From: Candidatus Omnitrophota bacterium
Lineage (GTDB): Bacteria; Omnitrophota; Gorgyraeia; Gygaellales; Profunditerraquicolaceae
Reading direction: 5' to 3'
DNA length: 64,000 nucleotides
NCBI GenBank assembly: GCA_041650835.1
Contig: JBAZKL010000001.1
Location: 299,931 to 363,930, forward strand
Shown: piece by piece, positions 9,813-45,558 of the stretch
Numbering within the stretch: position 1 is the stretch's first letter
Layout: each line of letters opens with the position of its first letter
Program-made: the position numbers and the translations under genes
The notes under the pieces: model-generated
Seen by the model: the letters and a program-made list of their open reading frames with translations, nothing else
Databases searched by the model: none
Told to the model about the DNA's origin: nothing

Positions 9813-9883
9813 AACTATCTCCCTTTTTTTACGCTTACGCCTTTTATATGTTCCATACGGACCCTCCGGCAATTAAACCGGCA

Positions 9884-11668: not shown

Positions 11669-11699
11669 ATGCAGATCCTCCTTTTGCAGAATGCAAAAC

Positions 11700-28245: not shown

Positions 28246-28586
28246 CAGGCCTCCTTTCCCAGGGCCTTTAAAGCCGCGGGAATACTGTCAAAAGTCCTAA
28301 AGAAATTACTAAACCCCGTCATCTCCATGACATCCTTGATCTCATCGCACAGGCCGCTTAAAAGCAGGACTCCTCCCTGCGTAGAAAGCTGTTTTGCAGC
28401 CATTAAGAGAAGCCGCAATCCCGCGCTGGAAATATAACCGCAGTCTTTAAGATCGATCAACATCGACATTTTCGAAGTAAGGATCGGAAGTATCTTTTCC
28501 TGCGCGTCATTAACCGTATTGCCGTCAAGGCTGCCGGATATTTTAATGATCGTTGCTCCCTCCTGAGTAGTAGTCTTTATTTCCAT
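28245..28586 (-). CDS. STAS-domain anti-sigma-factor antagonist (second copy)
   Basis: Start placed at MEIKTT. IKISGSLDGNTVNDAQE...DLKDCGYISSAGLRLLL has the same phospho-Ser motif. Stop overlaps glgX start. Confidence 0.75.
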   Translation of the reverse strand: MEIKTTTQEGATIIKISGSLDGNTVNDAQEKILPILTSKMSMLIDLKDCGYISSAGLRLLLMAAKQLSTQGGVLLLSGLCDEIKDVMEMTGFSNFFRTFDSIPAALKALGKEA

Positions 28587-28605
28587 AGTATCACCCTCCT
28601 CATAG

Positions 28606-30426
28606 CTATTGCACAGGAACAAGCCTTACCTTGATTTTCGGCCGGTAATTCAAGTTCGGTAATGAGACAGTTAATTTCTCAGCGTCAAAGTTTTTCCAGG
28701 GGTTATTATCCACCCAGACTTCTTGTATACGCACGCTTCCCGGAGGAAGGATATCCGGCTGGACCCTCAGGACATCGCCCGGGAACCCATGAGGCAAAGG
28801 CTTAAAATAAAGTTCAAGCGGCTGTTTGGTATACAAAAGGTTTTCATATACCTGCGACAAATAGGCTAACTCCACTGAATGATACGCGCTCATAGAATGG
28901 CTGCCCTTTAAACGCTCAGTCCCCAGCAAGAAAGGCAATCCGTTATTCAGGACATTAAAATATACCGCCCCGTCATCATGATCCAGGTAAAAAGCATTGT
29001 AAAAAGCCGCGGACTCGCGCGCAAGCCGCAGGTATTCCTTATCCTTAAGGATCCCGTAAAGGATCGCGTACGCCAGGATCGCCTGCTCCTGCTGCCACCA
29101 TGCCTTACGGTCATGCCAGACAAAACGATGGCATTCTTCACCCGGCTGTAATGCCCTCTCCATAACGTCATACCAGCCGCTGCGTTGAAGGTCCATTCCG
29201 AATTTCGGCATGATCTCGGCGATCTTTTTGGCGAACTTCACGTATTTTTCGTCCGGCGCGAGGCTGTTAATACGCATTAAATTCCAGGCGATCTTAAGAT
29301 TATGGCCTATTACCGCCCTGTTCTGCTGCCATCCCCAGGTCTGATCATGGCTCCAGTCCTCGGAAAAGCGCTCATTAACAAAAGGGCTGTTTTCATAGTC
29401 AGGGAAATATTTAGTGATACAGTCGGCAGTATAAACCAGGAAATCCTTATATTTATCTTCTCCGGTAGCCAGCCATAAATTGATCAGGTAAGCCGGGGCA
29501 TGGTCGCCTACTGAATTCCAGTTCTTGCAGGCGCGGTTCCTTCCCAAAGACTCGCTTCGGGGATTAAGGCTGATCGGATCGATATGGGAGAAGTAACCTT
29601 GCTTTTCTTTATCGAGAAAAAAACGGTCGAACAGGTCAATGGTCATCTTGATGTCCTTCATTATCGCGGGATCCCCCGTAATGCGGTATGTCTGCGTAGG
29701 GCCTGCCAGGGCATAGATCTGCTCATACATGGGGATCGCGTCATAATCGTCACCGAACTCTGAAGCGAAGATCTTATGCTCGCGCTCATGCTTAACGTCA
29801 ATGCCATGATACCAATAGACGATATTTTCTTCCGTATCGTAAAAACGCATATGATCGCGCAAATACTGGGTCCCTTTTTCAGCTGCCTCTAAGAAACGGT
29901 CCTCACCGGTGAGTAAAAACGCGGAAGCCATGCCGTAAACCATACGGGAGATAGTATCGGTCTCCTGACGGTGGTCTTTCTTGCGTTCCCCGGTCAAAGA
30001 CAGCATAGTCCGGTACTTACTGTAATCTATAGCCTCAGGCCCGCCAAACTGGGCCTTGATATAGAAATCAGCGATACTTCTTGCCTGGTTAACCCACCAG
30101 TTGGGCTCTTCAAAACGGTATTTCTCCGCGCTATCTCCCGAAAAAATAAGCACTTTCGCTTCAAAGGTATGGCCGTTCTTTTCCGGATAAAATATACCGA
30201 GGGTAAAAAGATACTGTCCCTGTACCAGCAATGATTCGATCTTACCGGTATAATCGCAATACCCCTCTTCCAGGTTACGGGGCCCGCGCGCATAGGTAGT
30301 GGCAGTAAGTTTGACCGAAAACTCCCGCCCATCAGAAGTTTTCATGCCGAATATTCTTTTTTCACGGTCATAACTTGTTACATAGCCTGCGATTGTATCG
30401 GAAAACTCAAAATTCATCCTTTGCAC
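28606..30426 (-). CDS. AGE-superfamily (N-acylglucosamine 2-epimerase/cellobiose 2-epimerase-like, six-hairpin) protein with about 150-aa N-terminal extension
   Basis: GTG start 30426 preceded by AGGAGG-N7. Central/C-terminal region has the alpha/alpha-barrel repeat pattern (W..Q....W.L, HDxxAxYxN) of AGE family. Assignment by eye only. Confidence 0.45.
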   Translation of the reverse strand: MQRMNFEFSDTIAGYVTSYDREKRIFGMKTSDGREFSVKLTATTYARGPRNLEEGYCDYTGKIESLLVQGQYLFTLGIFYPEKNGHTFEAKVLIFSGDSAEKYRFEEPNWWVNQARSIADFYIKAQFGGPEAIDYSKYRTMLSLTGERKKDHRQETDTISRMVYGMASAFLLTGEDRFLEAAEKGTQYLRDHMRFYDTEENIVYWYHGIDVKHEREHKIFASEFGDDYDAIPMYEQIYALAGPTQTYRITGDPAIMKDIKMTIDLFDRFFLDKEKQGYFSHIDPISLNPRSESLGRNRACKNWNSVGDHAPAYLINLWLATGEDKYKDFLVYTADCITKYFPDYENSPFVNERFSEDWSHDQTWGWQQNRAVIGHNLKIAWNLMRINSLAPDEKYVKFAKKIAEIMPKFGMDLQRSGWYDVMERALQPGEECHRFVWHDRKAWWQQEQAILAYAILYGILKDKEYLRLARESAAFYNAFYLDHDDGAVYFNVLNNGLPFLLGTERLKGSHSMSAYHSVELAYLSQVYENLLYTKQPLELYFKPLPHGFPGDVLRVQPDILPPGSVRIQEVWVDNNPWKNFDAEKLTVSLPNLNYRPKIKVRLVPVQ

Positions 30427-30724: not shown

Positions 30725-31510
30725 TTAAATGGATTTTTTCTTGCCCTTTTTAACAAACGCCATTGTTACAGCGCCCACCCCGAAAAGCAGCATTGAAACG
30801 GGTTCAGGAACTACTCCTCTGGGGTCTAAAGCATTCGCGGCATACACGTGCAGGTTAAAATCATCGAAAACAACGGAAACGTTTTGATCGGCATTTACTC
30901 CCGGCCAGAGGGAGATTTTTATATCCGTATCGTCAATGCCGGCAGCATTATATTGGCCTATCAGCAGCCATTTATTGTCGCCGCTTATTGTCGGATCGTA
31001 ATAAGCCCCCTGGAGTACTGAACCGGTCCTGATGATCCTTAAGCGCCCCTTCGTATCATCGGTACTTATTTGATGCGTGGTATCGCCAAGAAAATCAGTC
31101 AAATAGAATTCCCCGCCGTTATTGAGACGATTAACATCACCCAGTTCAGTTCGAAGGCCCGCGGTTACATCGTTATTAGGCACAGGCCAGTTATAAAGGT
31201 TATACGTTATAGAAGCTGAAAAGTCCCCCTGAATGGGAAAATTGAATTGAAGAACGCCTTCTCCGGGAAGATAACCTTCAGAGCCGGAGGCATATCTCAT
31301 CAAAATAAGTTTATTAGCAGAATTAGATATATCGGTTATATAGGAAGCGGTAACACTACCGGAAGAAGACAGGGTCCACCAAGATGGGTTAAGCTGAGTG
31401 TTAAAGTCTTCAAAATACTCGTATTCAGCTTTGGCTTGAGGCTGGGCGCACGCTAAAAAAACCACTGCTAATAAGGCAATGGGTAAAAAACATTTTCTAT
31501 TCACCGGCAC
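30725..31510 (-). CDS. PEP-CTERM sorting-domain secreted protein
   Basis: N-terminal signal peptide. C-terminal VPEPVSMLLFGVGAVTMAFVKKGKKKSI (PEP motif + TM + basic tail). Confidence 0.85.
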   Translation of the reverse strand: MPVNRKCFLPIALLAVVFLACAQPQAKAEYEYFEDFNTQLNPSWWTLSSSGSVTASYITDISNSANKLILMRYASGSEGYLPGEGVLQFNFPIQGDFSASITYNLYNWPVPNNDVTAGLRTELGDVNRLNNGGEFYLTDFLGDTTHQISTDDTKGRLRIIRTGSVLQGAYYDPTISGDNKWLLIGQYNAAGIDDTDIKISLWPGVNADQNVSVVFDDFNLHVYAANALDPRGVVPEPVSMLLFGVGAVTMAFVKKGKKKSI

Positions 31511-31546
31511 CTCTTTTATCAGTCTGATTGAGTTAAACTGGAATAG

Positions 31547-32215
31547 TTATGAACGCTGTTTTTTTCTCTTGGCAAAAACCATCACTGCCCCGCCTACACC
31601 GAAAAGAAGCATTGAGACAGGTTCGGGAACAACGTTGATACCCAGGAAAGGCTTATGATCGCTGCTTACTGAAGAATCGAATATATGAAAAGGATCACTC
31701 CCCGCTAAAACAAGCGAAAGATTCCCGCCTTCTGTTTGTTTGGCAAAAGAAGAAACATTCCAAGAAACCCAGCCTCCTTCAGGCATATCAATGTATGTGG
31801 TATTTCCTTTGGTATTATTGGAAAAATCAGGCGCATTATTCCATGTTATGGTCGACTCATTCCAATCTTCTGTTTCACGATAAACAGCAATATCTCCTTC
31901 ATCCGGATCATTATAACCCCAACTATCTTTAACTCTGTAGAGCCATAAATATGCGCTATCAATATTACTGATATCGGTTAAGTCGAATTTTAGATATGTA
32001 CGGGTAAATTCAGTGCCATCGATACTTGGGGGGACGGCATCATAGTTAACCGTGGCTCCTGCCCACAGCTTATCAGGATGCGTAGTTCCTTCTGTTTCCA
32101 TGTAATAAAAGCTGTCCGTGAACGCATCCTCTAATGACACCCGTTGATAGTCATAGCTATACGCTTGCGCTACAGACGCAAATAGAAGGGCAAAAGAAAG
32201 AATTATCTTTTTCAT
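31547..32215 (-). CDS. PEP-CTERM sorting-domain secreted protein (paralog)
   Basis: Signal peptide. C-terminal VVPEPVSMLLFGVGGAVMVFAKRKKQRS. Confidence 0.85.
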   Translation of the reverse strand: MKKIILSFALLFASVAQAYSYDYQRVSLEDAFTDSFYYMETEGTTHPDKLWAGATVNYDAVPPSIDGTEFTRTYLKFDLTDISNIDSAYLWLYRVKDSWGYNDPDEGDIAVYRETEDWNESTITWNNAPDFSNNTKGNTTYIDMPEGGWVSWNVSSFAKQTEGGNLSLVLAGSDPFHIFDSSVSSDHKPFLGINVVPEPVSMLLFGVGGAVMVFAKRKKQRS

Positions 32216-32227
32216 CTGTCTCTCCTC

Positions 32228-35200
32228 TTATTTACTTTTGAGTTTCTCGTCAAAGTCCTGAAAGAACTGCAGCAGGCTGTCATGGCCGACGAGCTTGAGC
32301 TGGCCGCCGGTAAGCTCGTAGGCATCCGCGCCGACCGAGAATTGGTCAAAAGCTCCCATATCCGACTCGGTAAGCGGATGATAGAAGAAAACTGAACCTA
32401 TGGGCGAGTTGAATTGGAACATCGCCAGGTCAGAAGCGTCTAAGCTCACAGGTTCATACGAGATAATACTGCCGACAGGAGCTTGCGAGACCGATTCAGG
32501 TTCCGGGACAGGCTCTGGTTCTGGTTCCGGCTCAGGTTCAGGCTGCTCTGAGGGAATATTATTAAAATAAACTATGCCGGGAGCGCTCAACACGTTAATA
32601 ACATCAGGAGTAGTCTCTCCCCGGATGATTCCGGTAAACGCCGCGCTGACTCCGTCAATTAGACCGTATGATACCAAATTTAAATTGCCAACACCTGTGA
32701 TCAACACATCCAACGGGATATCCAATGATCCGATCATGGATGTGGAATAAACTATCTGATAATCCGGATATTCGCCTATACGTGAATATGTGCCGTCATA
32801 GATATATACATCCCCTGAAGAAGTAATATGCGGGCCTTCAATAGCGCCTGCTATGATCGCGCCCCCTGCAGAGATATAAAGCCCTGAACTTAGCCCGCTG
32901 ATAGCCGCGTTCAGGAATATATCCCGGGCAGCATCGAGAACTTCCACATTGCCGTATACCTGTCCGCTTTGCGGATATTGCACAAAAATGCTTCCGGCAG
33001 TAGAGCGCACGCGTATCGCGTTCAAGCCGTCATCATCGCTTAAGAGGCTCGCGCTGAAATCAGGTTCCTCGGAATTTCCGCAAAGCAGGTTTTCACCTGC
33101 AAAAGTGAAGTTGCTTGCTGACTGGAATGAGAAATATTCAGAAGTCAAGTTAACGGCCTGTGCGCTGTAAAGATTCCCCGCGCCATTATCGTTATTATCC
33201 GCATGTAATTGTATCGTGCCTGCCTCGAGATCGCAGTTCAGATACAGATCCCCCGCAGAATGCAGGTAAATATAATCATCTCTGGGCTGCAGTTCGTTAA
33301 CGGTAAGCGTCTCTTCCAATGTTGAATAGATCGCGATAGATGACGGAGAAGATTCTCCATACGGCGCATAGAGTTCCAGCGTAGTCCCATCATCGTTAAG
33401 CGACAGATAGAACGAACCGTCAGCGCCTTCAGTCACGACAAAATCATTTGCCCCCTGAAAAGAATGGCTAAAAGCTACCAGCTCAAGATATTCGGCTTCA
33501 AAGATCAGCTCGCCTATAACATCATCGTCGTCATAATCAGCATACAAGCCGATCGTATTGCCCATAAGGTTATTATTCAGCGTCAGGTCTGCGCCCGCGC
33601 GCAGGATCATGTCGCCGAAGATCTCGGAAGTGCCTTCCGCGTTTTGGGCGATCGCCTCAGAACGCACCGGGAATTCAAGCCCTTCGACATCGATCTCGAT
33701 ATCGCCGATGGCATAAACGCTCAAAGCGCCGGCTTGCGCTGTTGCGGTTAAGGAAGGAGCAACCGCGCCAAGTCCTATCGCCTGCGCCATAGAATACACC
33801 TGCGACTCACTCAGTACGCTAAAATTAGCGCCGGTCGTGATCTCCAAAGGCCCGCTTGAAGCAACAGCTGTATCGACCCCGTAAGCATACGCTGTGGAAT
33901 TCAATCCGGATACTAAATCCAGGATAAAATTACCAAATGCAGAGACTATAATTTCACCAGAGGTGGCAATAGCTGAATTGCTGGCAGGCACATCGCCCCC
34001 AACCGTCGAGGTTCCGGCGCTGGCTTGCGTATAAACATGGCCGCTGTTAAAAATGATCGAAGCATTCGTGAACAACCCCATATCCCCTGAAACAGACGTA
34101 GCGATAGCGCCGCCCTGCGCGGTAGCTGAAGAATATACCGAAGACTCATCCGTTAATTGAATGCCGCTGCCTTCACCACGGTCGCCGCCCGCATCCAAAA
34201 CCACCACACCGCTTTGCGCATCCACATTACCGTCACCCCAGGAAAGCGCGTTAGCAGAGGAATAAACACTGCTCTGATCATCCCCCGAATTGGCCACTAA
34301 GATCCCCCACGCCAGGATCCCCGCGTCGCCTGAACGCGCCGCCGCATCTCCGGAAGACTCCGCTGTTGCCGAAGAATAGACGTGGCCGTCGATAAAAAGG
34401 CTTGCGTATTCGGCGAAAAGCGTCACATCGCCGGAATCAGCGTCAGCTGAAAGGTACCCATCGGCCTGGGCGCTGGAATAAAATGATGCTCCATCAAAAC
34501 TGATCCAACCGTCAAAAGAAGTAACATCGACATCGCCGGATTGAGCATCCCCCAGGCCATACGCATCAGCCACTGCAGACGTATACGCTGATGTTTGGTT
34601 AGAAAAAACGATTTCGTTCTCTGCCGTAATGATAATATTGCCTGATCCAGCAGTGCAATTACTGGCGTTTGAGGCATCGGCACGGCTGTTGGGAGAAACG
34701 TTGTTAAAACTAATAGCGTCTCCTGCGATCAGGCTTACGCTGCCGGAATATGCGCTTGCGCTATTGCCTTCTCCTGTATCCGCTTCAGCCAGGGAAGAAA
34801 TAAACCCTTCACTAAGGGTAATAGATCCTAATAAACTTTCAAGATTCACGTCATCTGACTGCGCCCACGCCGTGTCAGAGGACTCCGCGGTAGCCCAGGA
34901 AGTAAAAGAAACCGTTGCGTCATATTGCGGATCACCTGCTGCTTCAATACCATTATAGCCTAAGACACTGACATATCCCGCGTACGCGAGCGCTTCCTGC
35001 GCATCTCCTTCAAAGGCATATGCCTGGGCACGGCTGTTCAAGTCAGGGAAGCCGATCAAACGGAACAATCCAAGACAAGTAACATCAATGTTTCCCGTCC
35101 TGGCATAAGCATATTCATACGCGCTTGCCGTAGCATTAGACTGAACAGGAGTATCGATCAGATCCATATTCCCGCTGCTATATAAGGTAACATCACCGGC

Positions 35201-38200
35201 AGTCAATGACATGGAATTGGAGGTGGCTTCAGGGGCACCTGCCTGGGAATAAATATAACCTCCGTTACCGGTAAAAGCGCCATACGCAGTAACTGAAACA
35301 TCGCCTGACTCAGCTTCAACATTGTCAGAGCTATCTGCCTCGGCAGAAGAATATACACTTTCATTAAGAACAAAATTACCGTTGATCGTCAGATCAACTA
35401 AGCCGGAATAAGCATCGGCATCTGTTTCACTGGATGCCTCGGCTAAGGAATAAATATCATTGTTAACGGTCAAAGAGCCGCTTTCGATAGTAACAGGCCC
35501 GGAAACAGCATTAGCATAACTTTCACCATAGGCTGCTGCCTGAGAATAAATATTATTGTTAAAATCAAAAATGCCGGATGAATAGATATTGATCCCGCCG
35601 GAAGCAGCATAGGCATTCAAAGCGGTAGCTTCAACTTGGCTATAAACATACCCATCGATCAAATATATATTATTCCCGGCTAAATTAACATTGCCGGCAG
35701 TCAATCGAGCGGTAACAGCGTTAGAGCTTGAGGAAGACGCGCCGGTATAAGCGTATCCGCCGTCCAGAGTAAGATCTGTTCCGGCATACATTGTTACATC
35801 ACCGGAAGTCGCCTGCACTAAACCCGGGGTATAGTCCCCGTAACCGCCGGCGTAAGCTTCGGCGGTAGAATAAGCGCTCAAATAGACGTTCACCGCCCCA
35901 TACCAGCTGTGCACATCGATGCTATCGGAAGTAGCGTATGCCGAGCCGCCGTTAGAATTCACAACCGCGGAAACATTAGACCAGACAAGCGATGTAACCG
36001 GGATAGTAATGGTCCCATAATAAGAGACAAGATTGACCTTGCCGGAGACCGATTCAGCGAGATCCACCGCAGAGGTCAATGCATCGCTATACACATGGCT
36101 GGCGAGCGTAATATCATACCAGGCATCCAAGGTCACGTCGCCTGCGCGGGCATAAGCCTCCTCCGCGCTCCCTTGAGCAACAGCAGATCCGTAAACCTGA
36201 GAATTATCAGCCATCACGACCCGGTTGCCCGCGTCGATCAATACCGCCTGATAACCCCATTCATAGTTATTGTAATCGTAATAGGACTGCCCGGCTATAG
36301 CCGTCATGCTTGAACCGGCCTGCTCTTCAAGACTAGTCTGCGCATCGGCATCAGAACGAACCTCGGTCTGGGTAAGCAGGATATCTCCATAGGCCGCAGC
36401 AAGAATGACTGCGGAGGAATACGCTTCTGCGCTGTAACCAGCAGTCGCTTGTGCCCAAGAATAGACATCCGCGCCGTAATTATAGTACGGATCCCTGCCG
36501 TCGATCGTCAAAGTATTGCCCGCGTTCAAACTAACCAGGCCGCTTTGCGCGTAAGCGCTCGTGCCCAAATAAGAGTTCGCGTTGGCGGAAGAATAGATCA
36601 GCTCAAGAAATCCGGTATCAGTAAGGTTATTGCCCGCTTCAAGCAGAACATCACCGCTGTAAGCGGTTGAAGTTAGGCTGCCGCTGGCAGAGGCTTGCGA
36701 ATAGACATGGCCCCAGTCCATGGTAATATTGTTTCCGGCAGTCAGGCTGACAACGCCTGAAGTTGCCGAACAATTCTCAGAACCGGAACCGTTGGCGTAA
36801 GAATAAACGCCGGCGCCGCGGCCAAAAATAATATCGCCGCCGGCGGATAAAATAACATCACCGGAAACCGCGTTAGCTACCGGGTTATAATAATCTGAAC
36901 CTACATTCGAGGATATGCTGACCTGGTCAGCTAATTCAATGTTATCATCCGCGTACAAAGAGATCGATCCGCCGGGGGCATCCGCATAAATATCGCCCAG
37001 GATATTAAGGCTGGACATTGCCTGCAAATAAATATCTCCGCCATGATTGTAAATCCCGTCTTCATAAGAATCGGCGTAACCTACCTGCAGGTCCCCCCTA
37101 TTAATGATATTGATATCGCCGCTACCGCTATTTGACGCAGTAACGGTCTGTACGCCGTTCATAGCCACATCAATACCGTTGACGGCAGAAAGTTCTACGG
37201 TTCCCGCCGAAATCTCTCCTCTACCCGCGGGCATCTGTGTCTGGGCAAAGATCTCAAGACCGGAAAGAGCCTGGTTATAGGCCCTGACATCATCCATATA
37301 TCCTTCTACCGTGAGAGGCAAGTAACCCCATGAGCCGATGCAGAAAGAACTTGAGGTATCCGCAGAACCTTCTGCGACAGTAAACTCGCTAAAATACCTG
37401 GTTTCATCGCCGTCAAAGACATAAAGTCCGCCCTCATTACCGTCACGGACCATAGATAACTGATACCAGCTTTCGTTATTGATAGCTACGGTACTGTCAA
37501 AGGTCTGCTCATTCAACCAGTAACGTAAATAACCATTATGATTTTCCAGGGCATAGCCTAAGCCCCTTCCGGGAGTAGCCCCGGCCAAACCAACATACTG
37601 CTCATTCTGTGTCCCCTGATACCATACTATTAAGGTAAAGGGAGCACTGCCGAAATTGAAGTTGCGGCCTGTATTGATATAATCGTCAACTCCGTCAAAA
37701 TACAAACAAGAAGAACCGTCAACCCCTGTTCCCCAGCCGGGGTTGCCGTTAACATAAGAATACATGCCGGTAACTTGATCATAAACATAGTTACCGTAAC
37801 CCTCGTCAAAATTCCAGTAAGCCTGCAGGCCGTAATCAAGAACTTCCATGTTCCTGCGGGCGATCGCGCCGGTTTCAGAGGTCAGATAAATTCCTGCCCA
37901 ATCCGGAGCAGTTATATTTGCTATAGTATTAATATATAGATTACCCTGGGCATTAAGTTCGATATCCCCTTCTGCCCATATCCCGTAGCGGACTCGCAGG
38001 TCGCCTTCAGCGGAAATATTGATCGACGCTTCTGCCGCGGTATTTTCCGCGGTCAAAACAACCAGATCCTTGTCATTACGAAGGTATATCCCGCCATTTT
38101 CTTCATTAAAAGCCACCAGGTTATTCACAGAGATCTCTAACTCATAATCGGGATCTCCGATCCCACCGATAGCCTCAAGGTAAAGCTCATCAGCCTCAAT

Positions 38201-40069
38201 AGCAGTGCCTTCTGCGCCGTTTAAGATCGAACCCGAAGCCATCAAAACTACCAGGCCGGGAGAACGGATATCTGAAACGTAAAGATCAGGCGCCCCTTGT
38301 TCGATAAAGATATCGCCATATGTAGATTCAGGATTTATGACTGCGGAAAGAGATCCTACGTTGGTCAGGACAGGATGGTCAAGTGAGCCGATACCAGAAC
38401 CCGCTCTTAAGTTCAAGGTACCGCCCCAATCATCACCGGAAATGGTATAATCACCGGTATTGATTATTGAACCAATGCCGGGATCATATGTTGAATCCCA
38501 TTCATACCAGAAATATTCGTTGTCTTCAGTATAAGCTTGTTGATCAGCAAAGAGATTAAGGGTGGCATTGTAACCAAGAGTGATATTACCGATAATAGTA
38601 ATATCGCGCCAAGCGTCAATAGTAGCGTCTGCTTCAATGAAAGTTGAACCTGCGGGGTCCCCGATCGTAGCGTATTCGGGGTCAAGGATGGCTTTTCCAA
38701 GGGTAAATCCCGGAGGAGCCCTGCCATTGAGAATACCAAAGAAACCCAATTGTTGGAATGCGTCAATATATACTGTTCCGCCGTTACCGCTCAAGGCTCC
38801 GGCTGAGAAATCTATTTTCGCGGTTTTGTTCACAAAAACGCTGCCCTGCCTGGCATCAATGGAGATCCTTCCGCCATTTCCCACAAGGCCCATTGCCCTT
38901 GCTTCTGTTGAGCTATTTTCATCCAAGACGGTGTTGTTTTCGCTGATAATGCTGATCTCACCGGCAGTACCCTCTTCATCAGCATTGGCAGAGATCAACC
39001 CCTGCTGCAAAATACTTTCAGCTTCCAAAACGATCTTACCGCCAGCAGGGGTTATTGCGGGCGCGTAAGCGATGATCTTACCCTCTTTAGTATTGGTTAT
39101 GCTGTCTTCCTTTACCTTTATATATATCTCCTGCGCCTTTATTTCTCCGGAATTGGTAAAAGCTGCATCAGAGGTAATAGAAACTTTGTCCGCTTCCAGG
39201 GTGCCGCTATTAGCTACCTGAGCACCTTCAGCTAACAATTCGATTATCCCATCATGTTTGACTAAAGAAGTGACTTTTACCAGTCCGGTATTGTTGATCG
39301 CATAGTCAAAAACACGATTTAATATTTTAGCAGTCAGGATAACTTTACCACCTTCTGCCAGGATTGACCCGCTATTCTTTACAGCACAAGAGATCTTCTG
39401 GCCATCCGGGCCAAAGATCTCTTCTTGCACCCCTTCATCGATCACCACTGAAATCGCGTTCTTATCTTCCAGTGCCAGGGTCATCTTTTCTCCAGAAGCG
39501 AGGACCACCGTGCCCAGATCAGCCTGGATCATCATCCGGTTATCAACTGCCTGCGAAAGCAGGCAAACGTAACCACCGGACTGCGCGTTAAGGCTACCCT
39601 GGTTAATGATAAAGCTGCCTTTACCTTCTTGAGAAAACACATAATTCCCATTAAGAAAGTCTTCATTGGCAATATTAAGCGTTGAAGCGACAAGGCCCGC
39701 GACATCAACATGAGAACCGGGGCCAAACAATACACCATTAGGGTTAACTAAAAAGATCTGCCCGTTCGCGGACAATGTCCCCATGATACTGGAAGGGTCT
39801 ATGCCAACCACGCGGTTCAACGCCACAGAGCTTGCAGAAGGCTGCAGGAAACGCACGGCTTCCTGCGCGGCTATATTAAAACTATTATAATTGACAATGA
39901 GTTTATCGGAAGGGGTATTGATATTCAGAGTATTGGATGCAGAACGGTCAAAGCTTGCCTCTCCGCTGACTACACTTTCACCTTCAGGAAGGGCAAAGAG
40001 CATAACCGGCAGAAATAAAACCATACAAATAGCGCTCATTACCCAATATTTAATCGCGGTAATCTTCAT
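32228..40069 (-). CDS. Giant TpsA-type exoprotein (filamentous-haemagglutinin-like): N-terminal TPS secretion domain, beta-helical repeats, LamG/ConA-like insert, PE-repeat linker, distinct C-terminal domain
   Basis: 2613 aa. Signal peptide. TPS domain NINTPSDKLIVNYNSFNIAAQEAVRFLQP...ALNRVVGIDPSSIMGTLSANGQIFLVNPNGVLFG. Dozens of about 40-aa YS(Q/S)A..SGDV.L.AG repeats. LamG-like block about aa 760-930. (EP)6VPEPE linker. Confidence 0.85.
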   Translation of the reverse strand: MKITAIKYWVMSAICMVLFLPVMLFALPEGESVVSGEASFDRSASNTLNINTPSDKLIVNYNSFNIAAQEAVRFLQPSASSVALNRVVGIDPSSIMGTLSANGQIFLVNPNGVLFGPGSHVDVAGLVASTLNIANEDFLNGNYVFSQEGKGSFIINQGSLNAQSGGYVCLLSQAVDNRMMIQADLGTVVLASGEKMTLALEDKNAISVVIDEGVQEEIFGPDGQKISCAVKNSGSILAEGGKVILTAKILNRVFDYAINNTGLVKVTSLVKHDGIIELLAEGAQVANSGTLEADKVSITSDAAFTNSGEIKAQEIYIKVKEDSITNTKEGKIIAYAPAITPAGGKIVLEAESILQQGLISANADEEGTAGEISIISENNTVLDENSSTEARAMGLVGNGGRISIDARQGSVFVNKTAKIDFSAGALSGNGGTVYIDAFQQLGFFGILNGRAPPGFTLGKAILDPEYATIGDPAGSTFIEADATIDAWRDITIIGNITLGYNATLNLFADQQAYTEDNEYFWYEWDSTYDPGIGSIINTGDYTISGDDWGGTLNLRAGSGIGSLDHPVLTNVGSLSAVINPESTYGDIFIEQGAPDLYVSDIRSPGLVVLMASGSILNGAEGTAIEADELYLEAIGGIGDPDYELEISVNNLVAFNEENGGIYLRNDKDLVVLTAENTAAEASINISAEGDLRVRYGIWAEGDIELNAQGNLYINTIANITAPDWAGIYLTSETGAIARRNMEVLDYGLQAYWNFDEGYGNYVYDQVTGMYSYVNGNPGWGTGVDGSSCLYFDGVDDYINTGRNFNFGSAPFTLIVWYQGTQNEQYVGLAGATPGRGLGYALENHNGYLRYWLNEQTFDSTVAINNESWYQLSMVRDGNEGGLYVFDGDETRYFSEFTVAEGSADTSSSFCIGSWGYLPLTVEGYMDDVRAYNQALSGLEIFAQTQMPAGRGEISAGTVELSAVNGIDVAMNGVQTVTASNSGSGDINIINRGDLQVGYADSYEDGIYNHGGDIYLQAMSSLNILGDIYADAPGGSISLYADDNIELADQVSISSNVGSDYYNPVANAVSGDVILSAGGDIIFGRGAGVYSYANGSGSENCSATSGVVSLTAGNNITMDWGHVYSQASASGSLTSTAYSGDVLLEAGNNLTDTGFLELIYSSANANSYLGTSAYAQSGLVSLNAGNTLTIDGRDPYYNYGADVYSWAQATAGYSAEAYSSAVILAAAYGDILLTQTEVRSDADAQTSLEEQAGSSMTAIAGQSYYDYNNYEWGYQAVLIDAGNRVVMADNSQVYGSAVAQGSAEEAYARAGDVTLDAWYDITLASHVYSDALTSAVDLAESVSGKVNLVSYYGTITIPVTSLVWSNVSAVVNSNGGSAYATSDSIDVHSWYGAVNVYLSAYSTAEAYAGGYGDYTPGLVQATSGDVTMYAGTDLTLDGGYAYTGASSSSSNAVTARLTAGNVNLAGNNIYLIDGYVYSQVEATALNAYAASGGINIYSSGIFDFNNNIYSQAAAYGESYANAVSGPVTIESGSLTVNNDIYSLAEASSETDADAYSGLVDLTINGNFVLNESVYSSAEADSSDNVEAESGDVSVTAYGAFTGNGGYIYSQAGAPEATSNSMSLTAGDVTLYSSGNMDLIDTPVQSNATASAYEYAYARTGNIDVTCLGLFRLIGFPDLNSRAQAYAFEGDAQEALAYAGYVSVLGYNGIEAAGDPQYDATVSFTSWATAESSDTAWAQSDDVNLESLLGSITLSEGFISSLAEADTGEGNSASAYSGSVSLIAGDAISFNNVSPNSRADASNASNCTAGSGNIIITAENEIVFSNQTSAYTSAVADAYGLGDAQSGDVDVTSFDGWISFDGASFYSSAQADGYLSADADSGDVTLFAEYASLFIDGHVYSSATAESSGDAAARSGDAGILAWGILVANSGDDQSSVYSSANALSWGDGNVDAQSGVVVLDAGGDRGEGSGIQLTDESSVYSSATAQGGAIATSVSGDMGLFTNASIIFNSGHVYTQASAGTSTVGGDVPASNSAIATSGEIIVSAFGNFILDLVSGLNSTAYAYGVDTAVASSGPLEITTGANFSVLSESQVYSMAQAIGLGAVAPSLTATAQAGALSVYAIGDIEIDVEGLEFPVRSEAIAQNAEGTSEIFGDMILRAGADLTLNNNLMGNTIGLYADYDDDDVIGELIFEAEYLELVAFSHSFQGANDFVVTEGADGSFYLSLNDDGTTLELYAPYGESSPSSIAIYSTLEETLTVNELQPRDDYIYLHSAGDLYLNCDLEAGTIQLHADNNDNGAGNLYSAQAVNLTSEYFSFQSASNFTFAGENLLCGNSEEPDFSASLLSDDDGLNAIRVRSTAGSIFVQYPQSGQVYGNVEVLDAARDIFLNAAISGLSSGLYISAGGAIIAGAIEGPHITSSGDVYIYDGTYSRIGEYPDYQIVYSTSMIGSLDIPLDVLITGVGNLNLVSYGLIDGVSAAFTGIIRGETTPDVINVLSAPGIVYFNNIPSEQPEPEPEPEPEPVPEPESVSQAPVGSIISYEPVSLDASDLAMFQFNSPIGSVFFYHPLTESDMGAFDQFSVGADAYELTGGQLKLVGHDSLLQFFQDFDEKLKSK
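32495..32545. repeat. Simple-sequence repeat (ggttcYgg)n encoding the (Pro-Glu)n linker of TpsA
   Basis: caggttccgggacaggctctggttctggttccggctcaggttcaggctg. Reverse complement encodes EPEPEPEPEPEPVPEPE. Confidence 0.7.
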
Positions 40070-40184
40070 AAATTTTTCTGCGGCTTATTGCTGGAATGAA
40101 ACCATCGACAAACACAACACTTACAGGATTTAGACTCTAATAAAGGCAGTATACATTATTTTGAAAGCGTTTTCAAGTTTTTTT

Positions 40185-41894
40185 TTAAAATTCTTTGGAA
40201 ACCTGGACCCAGGGATGAAAGCGGTCGCCGTCAGAAGGTGTCTTTTTAACAGACCAGGCAAAATCAGCCCTTATGGAGAAGTTTTCCGGAAGATTAAAAC
40301 GGATCCCCCACCCAAGGCTGCGCAAAGTGCTGTTTTTTCTTTCCCCTGGCTGAGGCTGGCGCAGATTAACATAACCCCAGTCATAAAATGCCACTAACTT
40401 TAAAGCATCGTAGAATTTTGCCTTTGAGAAAGGCACCAAAATATCCTTGGGTAAAAAGTATGGCGGGATCAGCCATTCCCAAGATGACGATATCCCCCGG
40501 TCTCCCACATATTCTCCGGAAGGATACCCCCTTACATTAGATATACCGCCCAACTGAAACTGTTGGGATGCCGTCAGGGTGTAGGGAGATGTTTGAGCCT
40601 GGCTCTTCCACAAAAGCATCGAGGATAACGGCATATTCTGAAGACGGATAAGATTTAAGCTATACTTGATAAATTTTCCGCCGGAGCCGACCCTTGAGGC
40701 GCGGCTGTCTTTTTCTTCCAATCCACCCATAAAATCAGCTAAACCAAGGCCTATTTCCGGAGAAATAATGGTCCTTCCTCCCCTTGCCCAAGAATCAGAA
40801 GCATCAAGGTCAGCTCCCAGTTTAACCACACGCAGACGGTCACGGCTCTGTTCATCGCCGAGTTGGAAATTAAAAGAATCCAGATAATCAAACCCGGCGT
40901 TCAAGGTAACGGCGTAATCATCCTTTTTGATCAAATCATGGATCGCGAAAATGCTGTAATTACGGCTCTTGCCTCTGGCCTCCAGGCTTTTGAATTCCCT
41001 GCCCAATTCCAGCGCTGATTTTGAGATGGAAAATCCCAGTTTAGTCCTGGAGGAAACAGGCAAAAGATAGCGCAAAGCGATCAACGTGTAATCCTGGCCG
41101 TCAGAGGTCTGATACTGCAGGGAAACAATATCATCGAATCCGAAAATATTGTTATGGCTGAGCACTCCCGTATAACGGTTCTTATCCACATAGCGGGAAG
41201 CGTAATTGTCATAATCTAACCGCAGATGTAACGGCAGGTTATCGGTAACTTCAAGGACAATATCAGTGGCACCCGCTTCCTTGCCGGGCGCGAGCACAGC
41301 CTTGACATTCCTGTCAGGATGCTCATTAAGTTTGGAAAGGTTTCTTCTGAGTTCTTTATAATCAAAATGCTCTCCTTTTTGAAGACGGATCGCCTTCCTG
41401 AGTACGGAAGTGCGGAAAAAACGGTTCCCCTTTATTTCCACGTCACCGATCACTCCTTCAACTGCCATGATCTCCATGACCTCATTTTGTATCTTTTGCG
41501 GAGGCAGATAGGCGCGGGAAGTCACATACCCTCTTTTACGATAGGCGTCAGTAATAAGGTCGACCACTTTTTGCATCTCCTCGAGCCCTATTTCTTTATT
41601 CTCAAAAGGCGAGATTATGCCCTGGATCTCCTGTTCAGGAATAAGCGTGACCCCTGTTACGTTGATCTTCTTGATCAAAACCTTCTCTCCGGCAGCAAGA
41701 GGGGCCCTGATCTCCGGCGGCGGCTCTTCTATCACCGGCTCTTCTTTCTTTTCTTCGATCCTCTCCCGCAGGAGTTTTTCTTCTTCAAGCTGGCGCTGTT
41801 CCTGCTGGAATTTCTCCACTTCCTGAGCCAGGGTTAAAGCAGGAAAAAGAAAAACAATACATATACCGATAAGAATTCTTTTTAATCTATCCAT
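40185..41894 (-). CDS. TpsB (ShlB/FhaC/HecB-family) outer-membrane transporter, cognate partner of the downstream TpsA
   Basis: Signal peptide, coiled-coil/Pro-rich spacer, POTRA (ITDAYRKRGYVTSRAYLPPQKIQNEVMEIMAVEGVIGDVEIKGNRFF) and C-terminal barrel ending ...VQVSKEF. 115 nt upstream of TpsA. Confidence 0.85.
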   Translation of the reverse strand: MDRLKRILIGICIVFLFPALTLAQEVEKFQQEQRQLEEEKLLRERIEEKKEEPVIEEPPPEIRAPLAAGEKVLIKKINVTGVTLIPEQEIQGIISPFENKEIGLEEMQKVVDLITDAYRKRGYVTSRAYLPPQKIQNEVMEIMAVEGVIGDVEIKGNRFFRTSVLRKAIRLQKGEHFDYKELRRNLSKLNEHPDRNVKAVLAPGKEAGATDIVLEVTDNLPLHLRLDYDNYASRYVDKNRYTGVLSHNNIFGFDDIVSLQYQTSDGQDYTLIALRYLLPVSSRTKLGFSISKSALELGREFKSLEARGKSRNYSIFAIHDLIKKDDYAVTLNAGFDYLDSFNFQLGDEQSRDRLRVVKLGADLDASDSWARGGRTIISPEIGLGLADFMGGLEEKDSRASRVGSGGKFIKYSLNLIRLQNMPLSSMLLWKSQAQTSPYTLTASQQFQLGGISNVRGYPSGEYVGDRGISSSWEWLIPPYFLPKDILVPFSKAKFYDALKLVAFYDWGYVNLRQPQPGERKNSTLRSLGWGIRFNLPENFSIRADFAWSVKKTPSDGDRFHPWVQVSKEF

Positions 41895-42025: not shown

Positions 42026-42640
42026 TTACTCATCTTCCCAAACACTGCCGCGGTCATTCTTACCCGCCTTGACGGAAGGGCCTGCTTGAGCGCCGGCAGC
42101 GCGAAGCAAGTCAATTATCTCGCTGTTGCTCCTAAACACTGCCATAGATAACGGTGTCGCTCCACTATCGTTCTTTGCGTTTATATCCGCTCCGTTATTA
42201 ACAAGGATTTTCGCGGTTTCAATATGCCCTGCCTTCTTACCTTTGAACGCCGCAAAATGTAAAGGAGTCGAATTATTTTTCGTCCGCGCGTCAACCAGGG
42301 CATGGTGAGCGAGTAAGATCTTTGCCGCCTCAGGCTGAGCCTGAGACGCCGCCACATGTAACGGCGTGCCCTGATTATCATTCCTTACGTTTACATCCGC
42401 CTTATAGGTATCCAAGAGCACCTTTATAACTTCCAGCTGCCCCCGGCCGACCGCCCAATGTAAAGGAGTCTTACCTAATTCATCTTTTGAGTATAGCAGG
42501 CCGGAGTCCTTATCCAGGAGAGCTTTCAATTTTACTATATCGCCGCTTTTGGCTGCTTCATGTATTTCTGCGGCATACATTACGCCGGCGCTCCCTAATA
42601 ACACACAAATAACGCATACCCCCATGATCGCTCTTTTCAT
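42026..42640 (-). CDS. Ankyrin-repeat protein with signal peptide
   Basis: Four to five TPLH(W/V/F)A(A/V)..G repeats (GKTPLHWAVGRGQLEVIKVLL etc.). Confidence 0.8.
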   Translation of the reverse strand: MKRAIMGVCVICVLLGSAGVMYAAEIHEAAKSGDIVKLKALLDKDSGLLYSKDELGKTPLHWAVGRGQLEVIKVLLDTYKADVNVRNDNQGTPLHVAASQAQPEAAKILLAHHALVDARTKNNSTPLHFAAFKGKKAGHIETAKILVNNGADINAKNDSGATPLSMAVFRSNSEIIDLLRAAGAQAGPSVKAGKNDRGSVWEDE

Positions 42641-42655: not shown

Positions 42656-44566
42656 TTAATTAAAACGAAAAACAAGCATGGTAATATCATCGGACTGAGG
42701 TTCTTCCTTTACAAAATCGCGTATTTCATTACGCAGGGCAAAGACTATCTCGGCAATACTCTTACCCTTTAACCCTGAAAGCGCCTTTTGCAGCCTTTTT
42801 TCGGAGAAAAACTCTTTTTGAGGGTTCATAGCCTCAGTTACCCCGTCAGTATAGAGGAACAGGCAATCCCCGTGATCGAGCTTGATCTTACCGGCTTTAA
42901 ACTTAAAGTTCTGCATAGGCCCCAGAACAAAACCGGTTTCAACCTTTAGAAATTCGAAATCCCCGCCTCCTGAACAGATCAAAGGCGGATTATGCCCGGC
43001 ATTGGAAAACTCAACTTCCCCTGTTTGCGTATCCAGCACCCCGCAAAAGACAGTAGTAAACATACTGGTATTATTATCGAGCGCCAGGATATTATTTACC
43101 TTAGAGAGTATTTCGGAGGCGGAGATACCCTGTAATGCCTCATTCTTCAAGAGGGTCTTGGTAATCATCATGAACAATGCCGCCGGCACTCCTTTGCCGG
43201 AAACATCCCCCATCGCGAAGAACAATTTCCTGTCATCGATCAGGCAAAAATCATAAAAATCACCGCCCACTTCCTTTGCCGCCTCCATCATGGCATAAAT
43301 ATCGAATTCTTTCTTGTCCGGGAACGGAGGAAAGATCCGGGGCAATATGCCGGTCTGGATTTCGCGGGCGATCTTCAACTCGCTTTCAATGCGTTCTTTT
43401 ACCGCGGTAGTCTCGGTCAACTTCTTGATGTAATCTTTGAGTGACAGCTTCATAGTGGCGAATGCTTCAGTCAGCTTTCCTACCTCATCCCCTGAGAGAA
43501 CCTTGGGTAATGGCACGTCAAGATCGCCTTTGCCGATGGCCTCCGCGGCAAGCGAGATCTTGCGCAGGGGTTTGGTAATGGAACGCGACAGGATGATAAT
43601 TACTATCACCAGCAATACTATCCCGGCCCCGCCCAGGAGGCCGGACTCCAGGCTGTTCCTGCGGACATCTTCCAACAACTCATCTTCAGGGAACATGACC
43701 GCCAGGGTCCAACCGGTAGAAAGGACAGGCGCATAATACATCCAGCATTTTTTACTTCTGGCAATAGAAATAACCGGCGCAAACCCGGATTCTCCACGCA
43801 CCATTTTTCTGGCGATCCGGCGTAATCCCGCGTCGTTGCGGGATTCTGCTACGCTGAAAATTGTTTCATTCATGATCAATTGTTTCACGGAATGCGTAAT
43901 GATCGTCCCGTTCCTGGAGATAAGGTAAGCATCGCCGGTTTTCAACACCTTAACAGAAGAAACAATATCGGTGAGTTTTTCCAGCGAGATATCAGCGCAG
44001 ACGATCCCTTTGAGTTTTTTCCCTCCCGGGGTCTTTTCGTAAAAAGGGACGGAATATGTCGCCATCAGGATATCGTCATAATACGGCTCTGTCCATACCG
44101 GGCGCTTGAGTTCACGGGGGATCTGATACCAATCCAGATAAAAATAGCGGTAAGATTCATCCCCCATATAAACCAAGGTCAGGCCTTCTTTTTCTTTGGC
44201 ATAATAGGGAGCGAAATAGAGCGATTGAGCGTCAAAGGCATACGGCTCAAACGCTATTCCGGCTCCATATATCTCTTCATTATTGTTTACTACCATTTTC
44301 AGAAGGCCGACAACCTCTTCTTTGCTCAAATTACCTTCTTCAAGAGAAAAAGCCATATTTTCCGGGATTTTCTTGACCGAAGCTAAAATGGTCTCAATTT
44401 TATTGACGGCGCGCAGCGTAACATTCTCAGCGTTCTCTCTAATATTACCCATGATAATATTCTTGGAGAACCGGTAATTTAAACCGATGATCAGAAAAAA
44501 GATAAGCGCGCTGCTCCCCGAGAAAAAAAGGATGAACTTAAAGGCAAGGCTTTTATTCCTCATCAT
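42656..44566 (-). CDS. Membrane sensor phosphatase: TM - Cache-like periplasmic domain - TM - HAMP - SpoIIE/PP2C
   Basis: Two TM segments flanking about 270-aa periplasmic region. HAMP (ITKPLRKISLAAEAIGKGDLDV). PP2C core GGDFYDFCLIDDRKLFFAMGDVSGKGVPAALFM...YTDGVTEA. Confidence 0.8.
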   Translation of the reverse strand: MMRNKSLAFKFILFFSGSSALIFFLIIGLNYRFSKNIIMGNIRENAENVTLRAVNKIETILASVKKIPENMAFSLEEGNLSKEEVVGLLKMVVNNNEEIYGAGIAFEPYAFDAQSLYFAPYYAKEKEGLTLVYMGDESYRYFYLDWYQIPRELKRPVWTEPYYDDILMATYSVPFYEKTPGGKKLKGIVCADISLEKLTDIVSSVKVLKTGDAYLISRNGTIITHSVKQLIMNETIFSVAESRNDAGLRRIARKMVRGESGFAPVISIARSKKCWMYYAPVLSTGWTLAVMFPEDELLEDVRRNSLESGLLGGAGIVLLVIVIIILSRSITKPLRKISLAAEAIGKGDLDVPLPKVLSGDEVGKLTEAFATMKLSLKDYIKKLTETTAVKERIESELKIAREIQTGILPRIFPPFPDKKEFDIYAMMEAAKEVGGDFYDFCLIDDRKLFFAMGDVSGKGVPAALFMMITKTLLKNEALQGISASEILSKVNNILALDNNTSMFTTVFCGVLDTQTGEVEFSNAGHNPPLICSGGGDFEFLKVETGFVLGPMQNFKFKAGKIKLDHGDCLFLYTDGVTEAMNPQKEFFSEKRLQKALSGLKGKSIAEIVFALRNEIRDFVKEEPQSDDITMLVFRFN

Positions 44567-45558
44567 TGTTTGTAAAATGTTTGATAGAATTCCTTAAAAC
44601 CAGGAGCTGCTTCGATTAAATCGTTATTTATGAGCTCTTTCACGACACGTTCGTAATCGTCTTTATTGAGTTCGCCCGGCCTGCCGCCGGTATCAGGAGG
44701 GCAGATGAGGTCTTTCATCCTGGAAAGCATCCACTGCTGATGGAGGCGGTTTGCCGGGACATGCGCCTGCCGCATGTATTTTAAAACAATATCCAATGCT
44801 TCATCGGGATGCTCAAAAGCATAGGCCCAGCCTTCAAGGCAGGCCTTTACAAAAGCCGCTGCCGCAAGAGGGTCTTTTTCAACTGTCTCCTCAAGCGCGT
44901 AGATGCCGTCTTCCGGAAAATTAAGGCCATGGTCACTTAAGAAAAACGCGGTTAACTCATCCGGATCGAGCCCGGAATTAAGAATAGTCTTGTATTCGTT
45001 ATACCACATCGCGGAAACCACATCCACGCCTCCCATTAAAAAAAGGTTAACGGTATAAGACTGCGGGATAATTTCCGGGTTAAGCTTGTACTTGCGGAAA
45101 AATGCCTTAGGCTGCAATTGCAGGTCACCCTCCCAAAGGCTTACCTTTTTGCCCTGCATATCCCCGGGCTTCAGGATACCGCTGGATTTTTTTGCTACCA
45201 ATAAGAGCGCCGAACGCTGGGACACCTGCCCGATGTTTACCAGCTTTACCCCTCGAGAGCGCCATTGGATCGCCGAGGAAAGCCAACTGATCCCAAAATC
45301 GGCTTTTTTGTCCTTTAATTGCTCGATCGGCGGGTGATCCGGGCCGCCCTCTAAAATGGTGACGTCTAAACCGTATTTTCTGAAGATCCCTTTATCATAA
45401 GCGACATAATAACCGGCAAACTGGGCCTGCGCCTTCCAGAGAGGGATAAAGGATATTTTTTTAAGGGAGGATTCTTCGGCAGAGGTAGTGCCGGAAAATA
45501 AGAAAATCATAAGAACAATTAAAAGGCCTGCCAAACTCCTCGACCGGGTACGTATCAT
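44563..45558 (-). CDS. NMT1/THI5-like (NitT/TauT-type) periplasmic substrate-binding protein; no adjacent permease/ATPase
   Basis: Signal peptide. LKKISFIPLWKAQAQFAGYYVAYDKGIFRKYGLDVTILEGG is typical of SsuA/NMT1-type SBPs. 4-nt overlap with downstream PP2C gene. Confidence 0.65.
   Translation of the reverse strand: MIRTRSRSLAGLLIVLMIFLFSGTTSAEESSLKKISFIPLWKAQAQFAGYYVAYDKGIFRKYGLDVTILEGGPDHPPIEQLKDKKADFGISWLSSAIQWRSRGVKLVNIGQVSQRSALLLVAKKSSGILKPGDMQGKKVSLWEGDLQLQPKAFFRKYKLNPEIIPQSYTVNLFLMGGVDVVSAMWYNEYKTILNSGLDPDELTAFFLSDHGLNFPEDGIYALEETVEKDPLAAAAFVKACLEGWAYAFEHPDEALDIVLKYMRQAHVPANRLHQQWMLSRMKDLICPPDTGGRPGELNKDDYERVVKELINNDLIEAAPGFKEFYQTFYKQ

Follow-up and report, generated by a model that had tools for sequence, protein, structure and literature searches.

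A conserved C-terminal tail on two-partner secretion exoproteins of Candidatus Omnitrophota and the lectin-type genes beside them

Introduction

What stands at the far end of a very large exoprotein of two-partner secretion (TPS), a route worked out almost entirely in Proteobacteria, when this exoprotein comes from the phylum Omnitrophota? The question is raised by a locus in a stretch of 64,000 nucleotides from a Candidatus Omnitrophota bacterium (assembly GCA_041650835.1, contig JBAZKL010000001.1, positions 299,931 to 363,930), referred to here as the window. The locus consists of four open reading frames (ORFs) arranged head to tail on the minus strand and coding for proteins of 569, 2613, 222 and 261 amino acids (aa), i.e. 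the transporter TpsB, its substrate TpsA and two small secreted proteins with PEP-CTERM anchors. A first, sequence-only reading had seen in this TpsA—with its long repeat shaft, Pro/Glu linker and distinct C-terminus—the architecture of a CdiA-like delivery protein with a variable C-terminal part, and had considered its pairing with PEP-CTERM cargo unusual.

The Omnitrophota are uncultured nanobacteria for which a predatory or parasitic way of life has been proposed. To our knowledge, the manner in which a TpsA is retained or released is known in a few cases only (FhaB, HMW1/HxuA and CdrA), each with its own solution, and we know of no description of PEP-CTERM genes adjoining a TPS operon. No account of TPS in Omnitrophota was found in the literature searched, and two preprints dealing with giant genes of the phylum mention neither this secretion route nor a conserved tail. 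Giant Omnitrophota surface ORFs containing Laminin_G_3 domains have been proposed to be adhesins for cell-cell attachment (Seymour et al. 2023, PMC10066038); the text of that paper mentions neither hemagglutinin nor two-partner secretion.

Conservation of the C-terminal tail

Behind the linker, the TpsA of the window ends in a module of 88 aa, which the sequence-only reading had rightly set apart from the shaft, although the length of about 230 aa given for it was too great. Searching with this tail by phmmer among 1.84 billion representatives (one per 50%-identity cluster of ~15 billion proteins) yielded 104 matches at E up to 1e-3, most of them a single stretch ending 0-12 residues from the C-terminus. 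The tail is present in 54 of the 120 best full-length TpsA homologues and, in all, at least 128 distinct tails have been gathered, each located at the extreme C-terminus. Concerning the opposite end of the tail-bearing proteins, 64 of them have a signal-peptide-like N-terminus, as judged by a crude rule; a TPS domain is found in 58 of these, the other six being fragments that pass the rule, and the rest of the tail-bearing set seems to consist of fragments truncated at the N-terminus. The passengers ahead of the tail vary widely, covering LamG, right-handed beta-helix, MBG, CBM96, GLUG and other Pfam domains, and one protein of only 408 aa (P0204) represents a complete minimal TpsA, in which the signal peptide and TPS domain are joined to the tail by just ~70 residues.

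When identity by region was measured against the window TpsA, homologue by homologue, the tail core surpassed the shaft in each of the homologues compared: 83% versus 61% in P0002, 75% versus 56% in P0003, 68% versus 34% in P0004, 65% versus 29% in P0006, 56% versus 27% in P0007, 38% versus 33% in P0010, and 43% versus 26% in P0014. With the tail conserved in 128 proteins and its core exceeding the shaft in identity, the expectation of a C-terminus that varies among homologues did not hold.

At the DNA level, a degenerate pattern for [YF]FYHPLT..D..AF was scanned through one genome per species (185,579 species) and returned 21 sites, to be compared with a chance expectation of ~0.07 sites calculated for equal base frequencies. 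All 21 fall in long ORFs, 37-60 codons ahead of the stop; 17 of them lie in metagenome-assembled genomes (MAGs) labelled as Omnitrophota and four in MAGs labelled as uncultured Planctomycetales/Planctomycetia. Where TpsA relatives are given an organism name, this is Candidatus Omnitrophota or Omnitrophica for the closest of them, a set that takes in all the tail-bearing ones. A profile search with the tail alignment in a set of 5.8 billion proteins retrieved only 22 short contig-end fragments.

A minority of the phmmer matches of the tail are cadherin-like repeat proteins (P0122, P0124, P0130, P0132, P0135 and others), in which the match covers just a stretch of 15-20 residues (AYELTGGQLKLVGHDS versus RFEVVGGQLKLKDGVS), the score being multiplied over many repeats. 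Giant cadherin-like proteins have the short motif RFEVVGGQLKLKDGVSLDHE in common with the tail segment AYELTGGQLKLVGHDSLL. The comparison of the tail profile with that of the cadherin-like repeats by hhalign gave a probability of only 30% over 33 columns, and the kinship of the two is therefore left as an unproven resemblance, which may be due to chance or to a shared beta-hairpin.

Based on the above results, the tail is a lineage-restricted, TpsA-specific conserved family, and not a polymorphic one. The sequence-only reading had itself named two things that would speak against it, a C-terminal module conserved among homologues and a module belonging to the shaft: the former is what was found, and the latter was not, the tail being a separate small domain behind the linker.

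Sequence and predicted structure of the tail

The consensus of the 128 copies, Q.N.F...G.VYFYHPLT..D.SAFD.F.L..GAYEFI.G.LNL.GH.GLLP.LEE.KKKK, is marked by the residues Y2563, H2564, P2565, D2570 and Y2584 (window numbering), near-invariant in the alignment, and ends in a Lys-rich helix. The AlphaFold2 (AF2) model based on 36 tails is of moderate quality (pLDDT 73, pTM 0.32); its elements follow one another as a flexible start, helix, hairpin, helix, hairpin and a final helix of 16 residues running into the Lys-rich terminus. No credible match of the tail was obtained in Pfam (the window tail at E up to 10, and 36 members) and none in NCBIfam (36 members), and the best match of a sequence profile search in the PDB had an E-value of 0.96. 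Since it was found in no domain library among those compared (Pfam, NCBIfam, PDB), the tail family is regarded here as new and undescribed.

The linker preceding it had been read correctly as (EP)6VPEPE (Table 1). Homologues belonging to the LamG subfamily also have linkers rich in P, E or D at this place, with their length and sequence varying.

The two-partner secretion locus

The four genes lie at the coordinates that had been given for them, as borne out by the ORF list (Table 1). They are separated by 115 bp between tpsB and tpsA and by an operon-like 12 bp and 36 bp between tpsA and the two PEP-CTERM genes, the next gene following ~300 bp beyond the last of them. The G+C content of the window is 45-50%, with no compositional break at the TPS locus except that it drops to 42.5% in the two small genes. 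Scans of the locus for Rfam families and for tandem repeats gave no matches, and the scan for promoters and terminators gave counts close to those of shuffled sequence. Public gene callers place the start of TpsA 15 codons later, which results in a protein of 2598 aa; the identical TpsA protein (P0001) is encoded on the 868-kb metagenome contig ERZ27247363 k141_1924541.

Table 1 Features of the window and of related loci; positions refer to the window unless a locus is named
Feature	Position	Strand	Length, residues or remarks
tpsB	40185..41894	-	569 aa; Omp85-family TpsB transporter
tpsA	32228..40069	-	2613-aa exoprotein; ORF list and translation
TpsA signal peptide	39992..40069	-	aa 1-26; MKITAIKYWVMSAICMVLFLPVMLFA, then LPEGE; read from sequence
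TPS secretion domain	39194..39985	-	aa 29-292; PF05860, TIGR01901
Laminin_G_3 / ConA-like lectin insert in shaft	37250..37696	-	aa 792-940; PF13385
Repeat shaft	33641..36988	-	aa 1028-2143; jackhmmer self-search
Pro/Glu linker	32495..32545	-	aa 2509-2525; QPEPEPEPEPEPVPEPE; sequence
Conserved C-terminal tail	32231..32494	-	aa 2526-2613, core aa 2551-2613; 128 distinct copies
PEP-CTERM protein 1	31547..32215	-	222 aa; signal peptide, DNRLRE/CBM96, anchor VVPEPVSMLLFGVGGAVMVFAKRKKQRS
PEP-CTERM protein 2	30725..31510	-	261 aa; signal peptide, predicted L-type-lectin-like beta-sandwich, anchor VVPEPVSMLLFGVGAVTMAFVKKGKKKSI
DUF3307 gene	4973-5686	+	cluster with second TpsB
CHASE2-adenylate/guanylate cyclase	5678-7918	-	cluster with second TpsB
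Beta-barrel porin-like gene	7931-8944	-	cluster with second TpsB
FecR gene	8967-9872	-	cluster with second TpsB
Second TpsB-like gene	9884-11830	-	POTRA_2 and ShlB
Protein with Lcl C-terminal domains	17642-19654	-	670 aa; four domains, PF07603, E=6e-115
NMT1-like / Cache-HAMP-PP2C (SpoIIE) genes	42656-45558	-	flanking the TPS locus
Further genes of the suggested partner-switching neighbourhood	24207-25754, 28245-28622		noted together with the NMT1-like / Cache-HAMP-PP2C pair
Ankyrin-repeat protein	42026-42640	-	204 aa; signal peptide MKRAIMGVCVICVLLGSAGVMYA, then AE
Long non-repetitive ORF	48595-55275	-	2226 aa
Three-gene cassette in relatives	L007:14438-16074, L008:14086-15769, L010:1546-3252, L013:4928-6789, L019:579-2309, L020:40-1697, L026:6142-7891, L030:2386-4144		SurA_N-like / HAMP / HExxH

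The 569-aa protein is a TpsB, in which a signal peptide and a charged N-terminal segment are followed by two POTRA domains and a barrel of the ShlB/FhaC type (Pfam: POTRA_2 E=3.4e-21, ShlB E=1.4e-23, POTRA E=7e-13, Omp85 E=5e-10). Its partner carries the TPS domain PF05860 with an E-value of 1.2e-32 (114 bits, the cut-off being 33.5), is matched by TIGR01901 (E=6.4e-23) and contains the motif NPNGV at aa 109; the homologues of TpsA have the signal-peptide junction ...FALPEGE in common. Both the secretion pair and the canonical TPS domain, as originally proposed, are thus confirmed, and the locus is one of two-partner secretion (type Vb), with a tpsB adjoining the gene of a substrate that has a Sec signal peptide and a TPS domain with the NPNG motif.

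The LamG/ConA-like block noticed near aa 760-930 proved to be a full-length Laminin_G_3 domain, slightly shifted to aa 792-940. It was missed in the Pfam scan of the whole protein and was detected when the segment was scanned alone (PF13385: E=1.3e-12, 48.6 bits, with a cut-off of 27.6, over profile positions 1-150 of 151). The same family is assigned in precomputed annotation to the homologues P0002-P0015, among which the region is 45-56% identical.

The shaft is the most variable part of TpsA among the homologues, its identity being 26-34% in P0004-P0014. It is built of degenerate repeats of 35-40 aa with the pattern SGDV.L.AG..I.....VYS.A.A; instead of the more than 40 claimed previously, the jackhmmer self-search recognised ~30 clear ones plus a few weak ones. 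These repeats belong to no Pfam repeat family, haemagglutinin repeats included, whether the whole protein or its segments were scanned: the FHA-1/FHA-2 family PF05594 reached only E=9.1 on the C-terminal third and did not match the whole TpsA. No tandem repeat is discernible in the shaft at the DNA level.

Genes following tpsA

The 222-aa and 261-aa proteins are the only ones in the window with PEP-CTERM-like C-termini. Each has a signal peptide and, at its C-terminus, a VPEP motif with a hydrophobic helix and a cluster of basic residues, the two anchors being nearly identical. In TIGR02595 (cut-off 16) both pass, with 23.1 bits for the 222-aa and 17.8 bits for the 261-aa protein, and in PF07589 (cut-off 20.7) the former passes with 21.0 bits and the latter, with 17.6 bits, stays below. 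With signal peptides and PEP-CTERM tails on both, the original statement that secreted PEP-CTERM proteins, and no cytoplasmic immunity protein, stand downstream is correct.

PEP-CTERM protein 1 is matched by NF033679 (E=1.7e-22) and CBM96 (PF24517, E=5.8e-16). The domain of the 261-aa protein has no family match in Pfam or NCBIfam, and its family counts only 11 homologues in 5.8 billion proteins. Its AF2 model (pTM 0.63) has ERGIC-53 and legume lectins as top matches in Foldseek (E ~1e-6, probability 1.0, TM 0.4-0.5), so that an L-type-lectin-like fold is predicted for it from the model.

The order tpsB-tpsA is kept in all eight related loci read. Both PEP-CTERM genes follow tpsA in the window and in L016, a close relative from the Omnitrophota MAG SO_2017_GW1_19; in the locus of P0002 their place is taken by a CBM96-like gene of 264 aa and by the gene of P0245, a 250-aa homologue of the 261-aa protein, in L009 by one 285-aa relative ending VVPEPVSSVLMIVGAGVLGLVSSRRRKKIS, and in L004/L005 by the gene also seen in L009, truncated where the contig ends. 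Counterparts of PEP-CTERM protein 1 thus occur in L016, L009, L004/L005 and the P0002 locus. An amine-oxidase-like gene follows tpsA directly in L002 and L006, and a different cassette of three genes does so in L007 and L008. The pairing of a TPS exoprotein with PEP-CTERM cargo is therefore real in the window and in four related loci, but it is narrow, as it is missing from L002, L006, L007 and L008. It should be added that CBM96 is fused inside other Omnitrophota TpsAs (P0026, P0029, P0043, P0045 and P0080), and hence this lectin-type domain is repeatedly associated with TpsA, whether fused to it or encoded next to it.

The three-gene cassette adjoins a tail-bearing tpsA in 12 of ~26 non-redundant Omnitrophota loci, i.e. 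the eight for which coordinates are given in Table 1 as well as L011, L015, L022 and L023. In nine of the 12 it begins on the same strand, 68-183 bp beyond the tpsA stop; it is found ~1.7 kb downstream in L011 and L030, and on the opposite strand in L022. Its genes code for a SurA_N-like (SurA_N_3) lipoprotein of ~190 aa (PF13624, E=5e-8), a HAMP protein of ~150-200 aa with two transmembrane segments, and a secreted ~190-aa protein in which an HExxH motif is conserved and which matches no family. These three may form a set of periplasmic chaperone, sensor and metalloprotease acting on TpsA. A tblastn search found none of the three genes in the 64-kb window, and the cassette is absent from the loci of the closest relatives (L002, L006, L009 and L016).

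Function of the locus and comparison with known systems

That the TpsA of the window is an adhesin-type TPS exoprotein with a conserved non-toxin tail can be said with high confidence. The locus as a whole is best explained as encoding a type Vb glycan-binding adhesin fibre provided with a periplasmic tail for retention or regulation and with accessory lectin-like genes, a reading that we consider fairly probable. The part of it ascribing to the tail and linker a role in periplasmic retention and/or regulated release, drawn by analogy with known TpsA proteins, is a serious possibility, if somewhat short of an even chance. The secretion system itself is ordinary; the novelty lies in the conserved tail and in the accessory genes of lectin type.

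According to established TPS biology, the TpsA would be exported by Sec, the POTRA domains of its partner would recognise the TPS domain, and the chain would be threaded N-to-C through the barrel of TpsB. Once outside, it would fold into a long repeat fibre bearing the ConA-like lectin domain and would act as an adhesin, the fibre probably binding glycans on another cell or surface, to judge from the family of that domain. The Pro/Glu linker would come to lie in or under the TpsB pore, with the tail folded in the periplasm, from where it would hold the fibre on the cell and/or control the later release of the fibre by proteolysis. For the two downstream proteins the anchors predict an exosortase-dependent attachment at the surface; they probably represent accessory carbohydrate binders particular to the clade and expressed together with the fibre.

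The occurrence of the same tail after unrelated passengers, as well as in a TpsA lacking any passenger, indicates that it most likely serves secretion or retention and not the activity of a passenger. The adhesin role fits the proposal, made for the giant Omnitrophota ORFs, of very large surface proteins used for cell-cell attachment (PMC10066038), the window TpsA sharing with them the phylum, the presence of PF13385 in a very large secreted protein and the proposed attachment role.

As regards the precedents for a periplasmic tail, HMW1 and HxuA are held on the cell by a short periplasmic C-terminal anchor, and the periplasmic tail of CdrA is cleaved by LapG (PMC5422565). In FhaB, a proline-rich region (PRR) plus an invariant extreme C-terminus (ECT) of 98 aa is periplasmic and inhibits the degradation of the prodomain (PMC4542190). 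The mechanism proposed here would share periplasmic C-terminal retention with HMW1/HMW1B, HxuA and CdrA. It is the Bordetella FhaB/FhaC system, however, that comes closest, in architecture only: besides the TpsB partner, the TPS domain, the long repeat shaft and the adhesin role, both exoproteins have a proline-rich stretch followed by a conserved terminal module, 88 aa here and 98 aa in FhaB. They differ in that the Omnitrophota protein has a LamG insert and possesses neither a prodomain of ~1200 aa nor Pfam Fil_haemagg repeats.

Several observations weigh against this interpretation and should be listed together. In the phmmer search among the 1.84 billion representatives, the tail showed no detectable sequence similarity to that of FhaB and no relation to those of HMW1, HxuA and CdrA; apart from C-termini of the Omnitrophota-type TpsAs, no match ended at the C-terminus of a TpsA. 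The AF2 model of the tail has no structural neighbour in the PDB (best E-value in Foldseek 0.74). The anchor of HMW1 and HxuA needs a disulfide loop, whereas there is no cysteine in the tail (aa 2526-2613), which excludes a disulfide plug of the HMW1 type. Since neither the composition nor the length of the linker is conserved outside the LamG subfamily, a pore-spanning role of the (EP)n stretch is speculative. The glycan binding ascribed to the LamG, CBM96 and lectin-like domains is a prediction from family membership or fold. Four of the eight related loci lack the PEP-CTERM genes, so that a functional link of these genes to TpsA is no more than putative. Finally, although the two proteins resemble known exosortase substrates in having a signal peptide and a PEP-CTERM tail recognised by TIGR02595, no exosortase was found among the ORFs of at least 150 aa in the 64-kb window, the only stretch searched; their adjacency to TPS genes is limited to one Omnitrophota subclade, and the search for literature on exosortase in Omnitrophota found none.

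It is conceivable, as a tentative extension, that the YHPLT tail provides a new way of tethering or releasing type Vb substrates, in which it would remain periplasmic, be bound by factors of its own such as those of the cassette, and let the fibre switch between the attached and released states. In the subclade of the window, the PEP-CTERM lectins take the position of the cassette. We judge this reading as a whole to be less likely than not. Should the switch exist, ultra-small and possibly predatory or parasitic cells would be able to change their surface fibres from attached to released; one tail on at least 128 TpsAs with unrelated passengers points to a general, lineage-wide solution for retention or release. 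From the practical point of view, the tail is a simple annotation marker of complete TpsA C-termini in fragmented Omnitrophota assemblies.

Among the alternatives, the one surviving best has the tail exported with the rest of the protein and acting outside, as a terminal cap, a module for oligomerisation or re-attachment, or a ligand-binding distal tip. Many TpsA proteins are indeed fully secreted, the AF2 model is that of a compact alpha/beta unit, and the central hairpin of the cadherin-like surface repeats bears the weak local resemblance described above. A tip would, however, be expected to co-vary with its passenger, whereas the same tail follows unrelated passengers and closes even the minimal TpsA; the cadherin resemblance is below any accepted threshold, and the Lys-rich end together with the Pro-rich spacer parallels the known periplasmic tails. 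We thus judge an extracellular tail to be unlikely.

Less likely still, in our opinion, is a tail serving chiefly as a recognition tag for a periplasmic chaperone or protease that matures or releases TpsA, with anchoring being secondary. The ECT of FhaB similarly controls proteolysis, and the cassette stands beside tpsA in 12 of ~26 loci, which speaks for such a tag; but the window and the loci of its closest relatives have no cassette, and the HExxH protein is without a family assignment.

A CdiA-like polymorphic toxin, with the shaft delivering a variable C-terminal toxin to neighbouring cells and an immunity gene placed after it, shares with the window TpsA the general layout alone (TPS domain, long filament of repeats, a receptor-binding-type domain inside the shaft, linker and small C-terminal domain) and is rejected as highly improbable, because the window TpsA has no VENN or pretoxin motif—as already noted in the sequence-only reading—and no FHA-1/FHA-2 repeats, because its tail matches no toxin family in Pfam or NCBIfam, because the genes after tpsA are not cytoplasmic immunity candidates here and are unrelated ones in four related loci, and because a conserved tail on a variable shaft is the opposite of the toxin pattern.

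Other genes of the window

Outside the TPS locus discussed as an adhesin fibre system, the window contains a second TpsB-like gene in one cluster with genes for FecR, a beta-barrel porin-like protein, a CHASE2-adenylate/guanylate cyclase and DUF3307 (Table 1). This cluster is positioned immediately upstream of tpsBA in L002, L004 and L006 and ~30 kb away from it in the window, from which it follows that the region has been rearranged.

The gene lying 131 bp upstream of tpsB codes for an ankyrin-repeat protein with a signal peptide; secreted or periplasmic ankyrin proteins are uncommon in bacteria. It was considered as a conserved partner of the TPS genes and rejected, as it does not occupy this position in the related loci.

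The TPS locus is flanked by genes for an NMT1-like binding protein and a Cache-HAMP-PP2C (SpoIIE) sensor phosphatase, a pair also seen near tpsA in L007 and L008, and a STAS anti-sigma antagonist as well as a HATPase_c_2-cNMP-SpoIIE protein are encoded nearby. Taken together, these genes suggest a partner-switching regulation in the TPS neighbourhood.

Two further large proteins deserve mention: the 2226-aa ORF, which has a signal-peptide-like N-terminus, is non-repetitive and matches no Pfam family at E up to 1e-3, and the 670-aa protein with four Lcl C-terminal domains, a probable surface protein.

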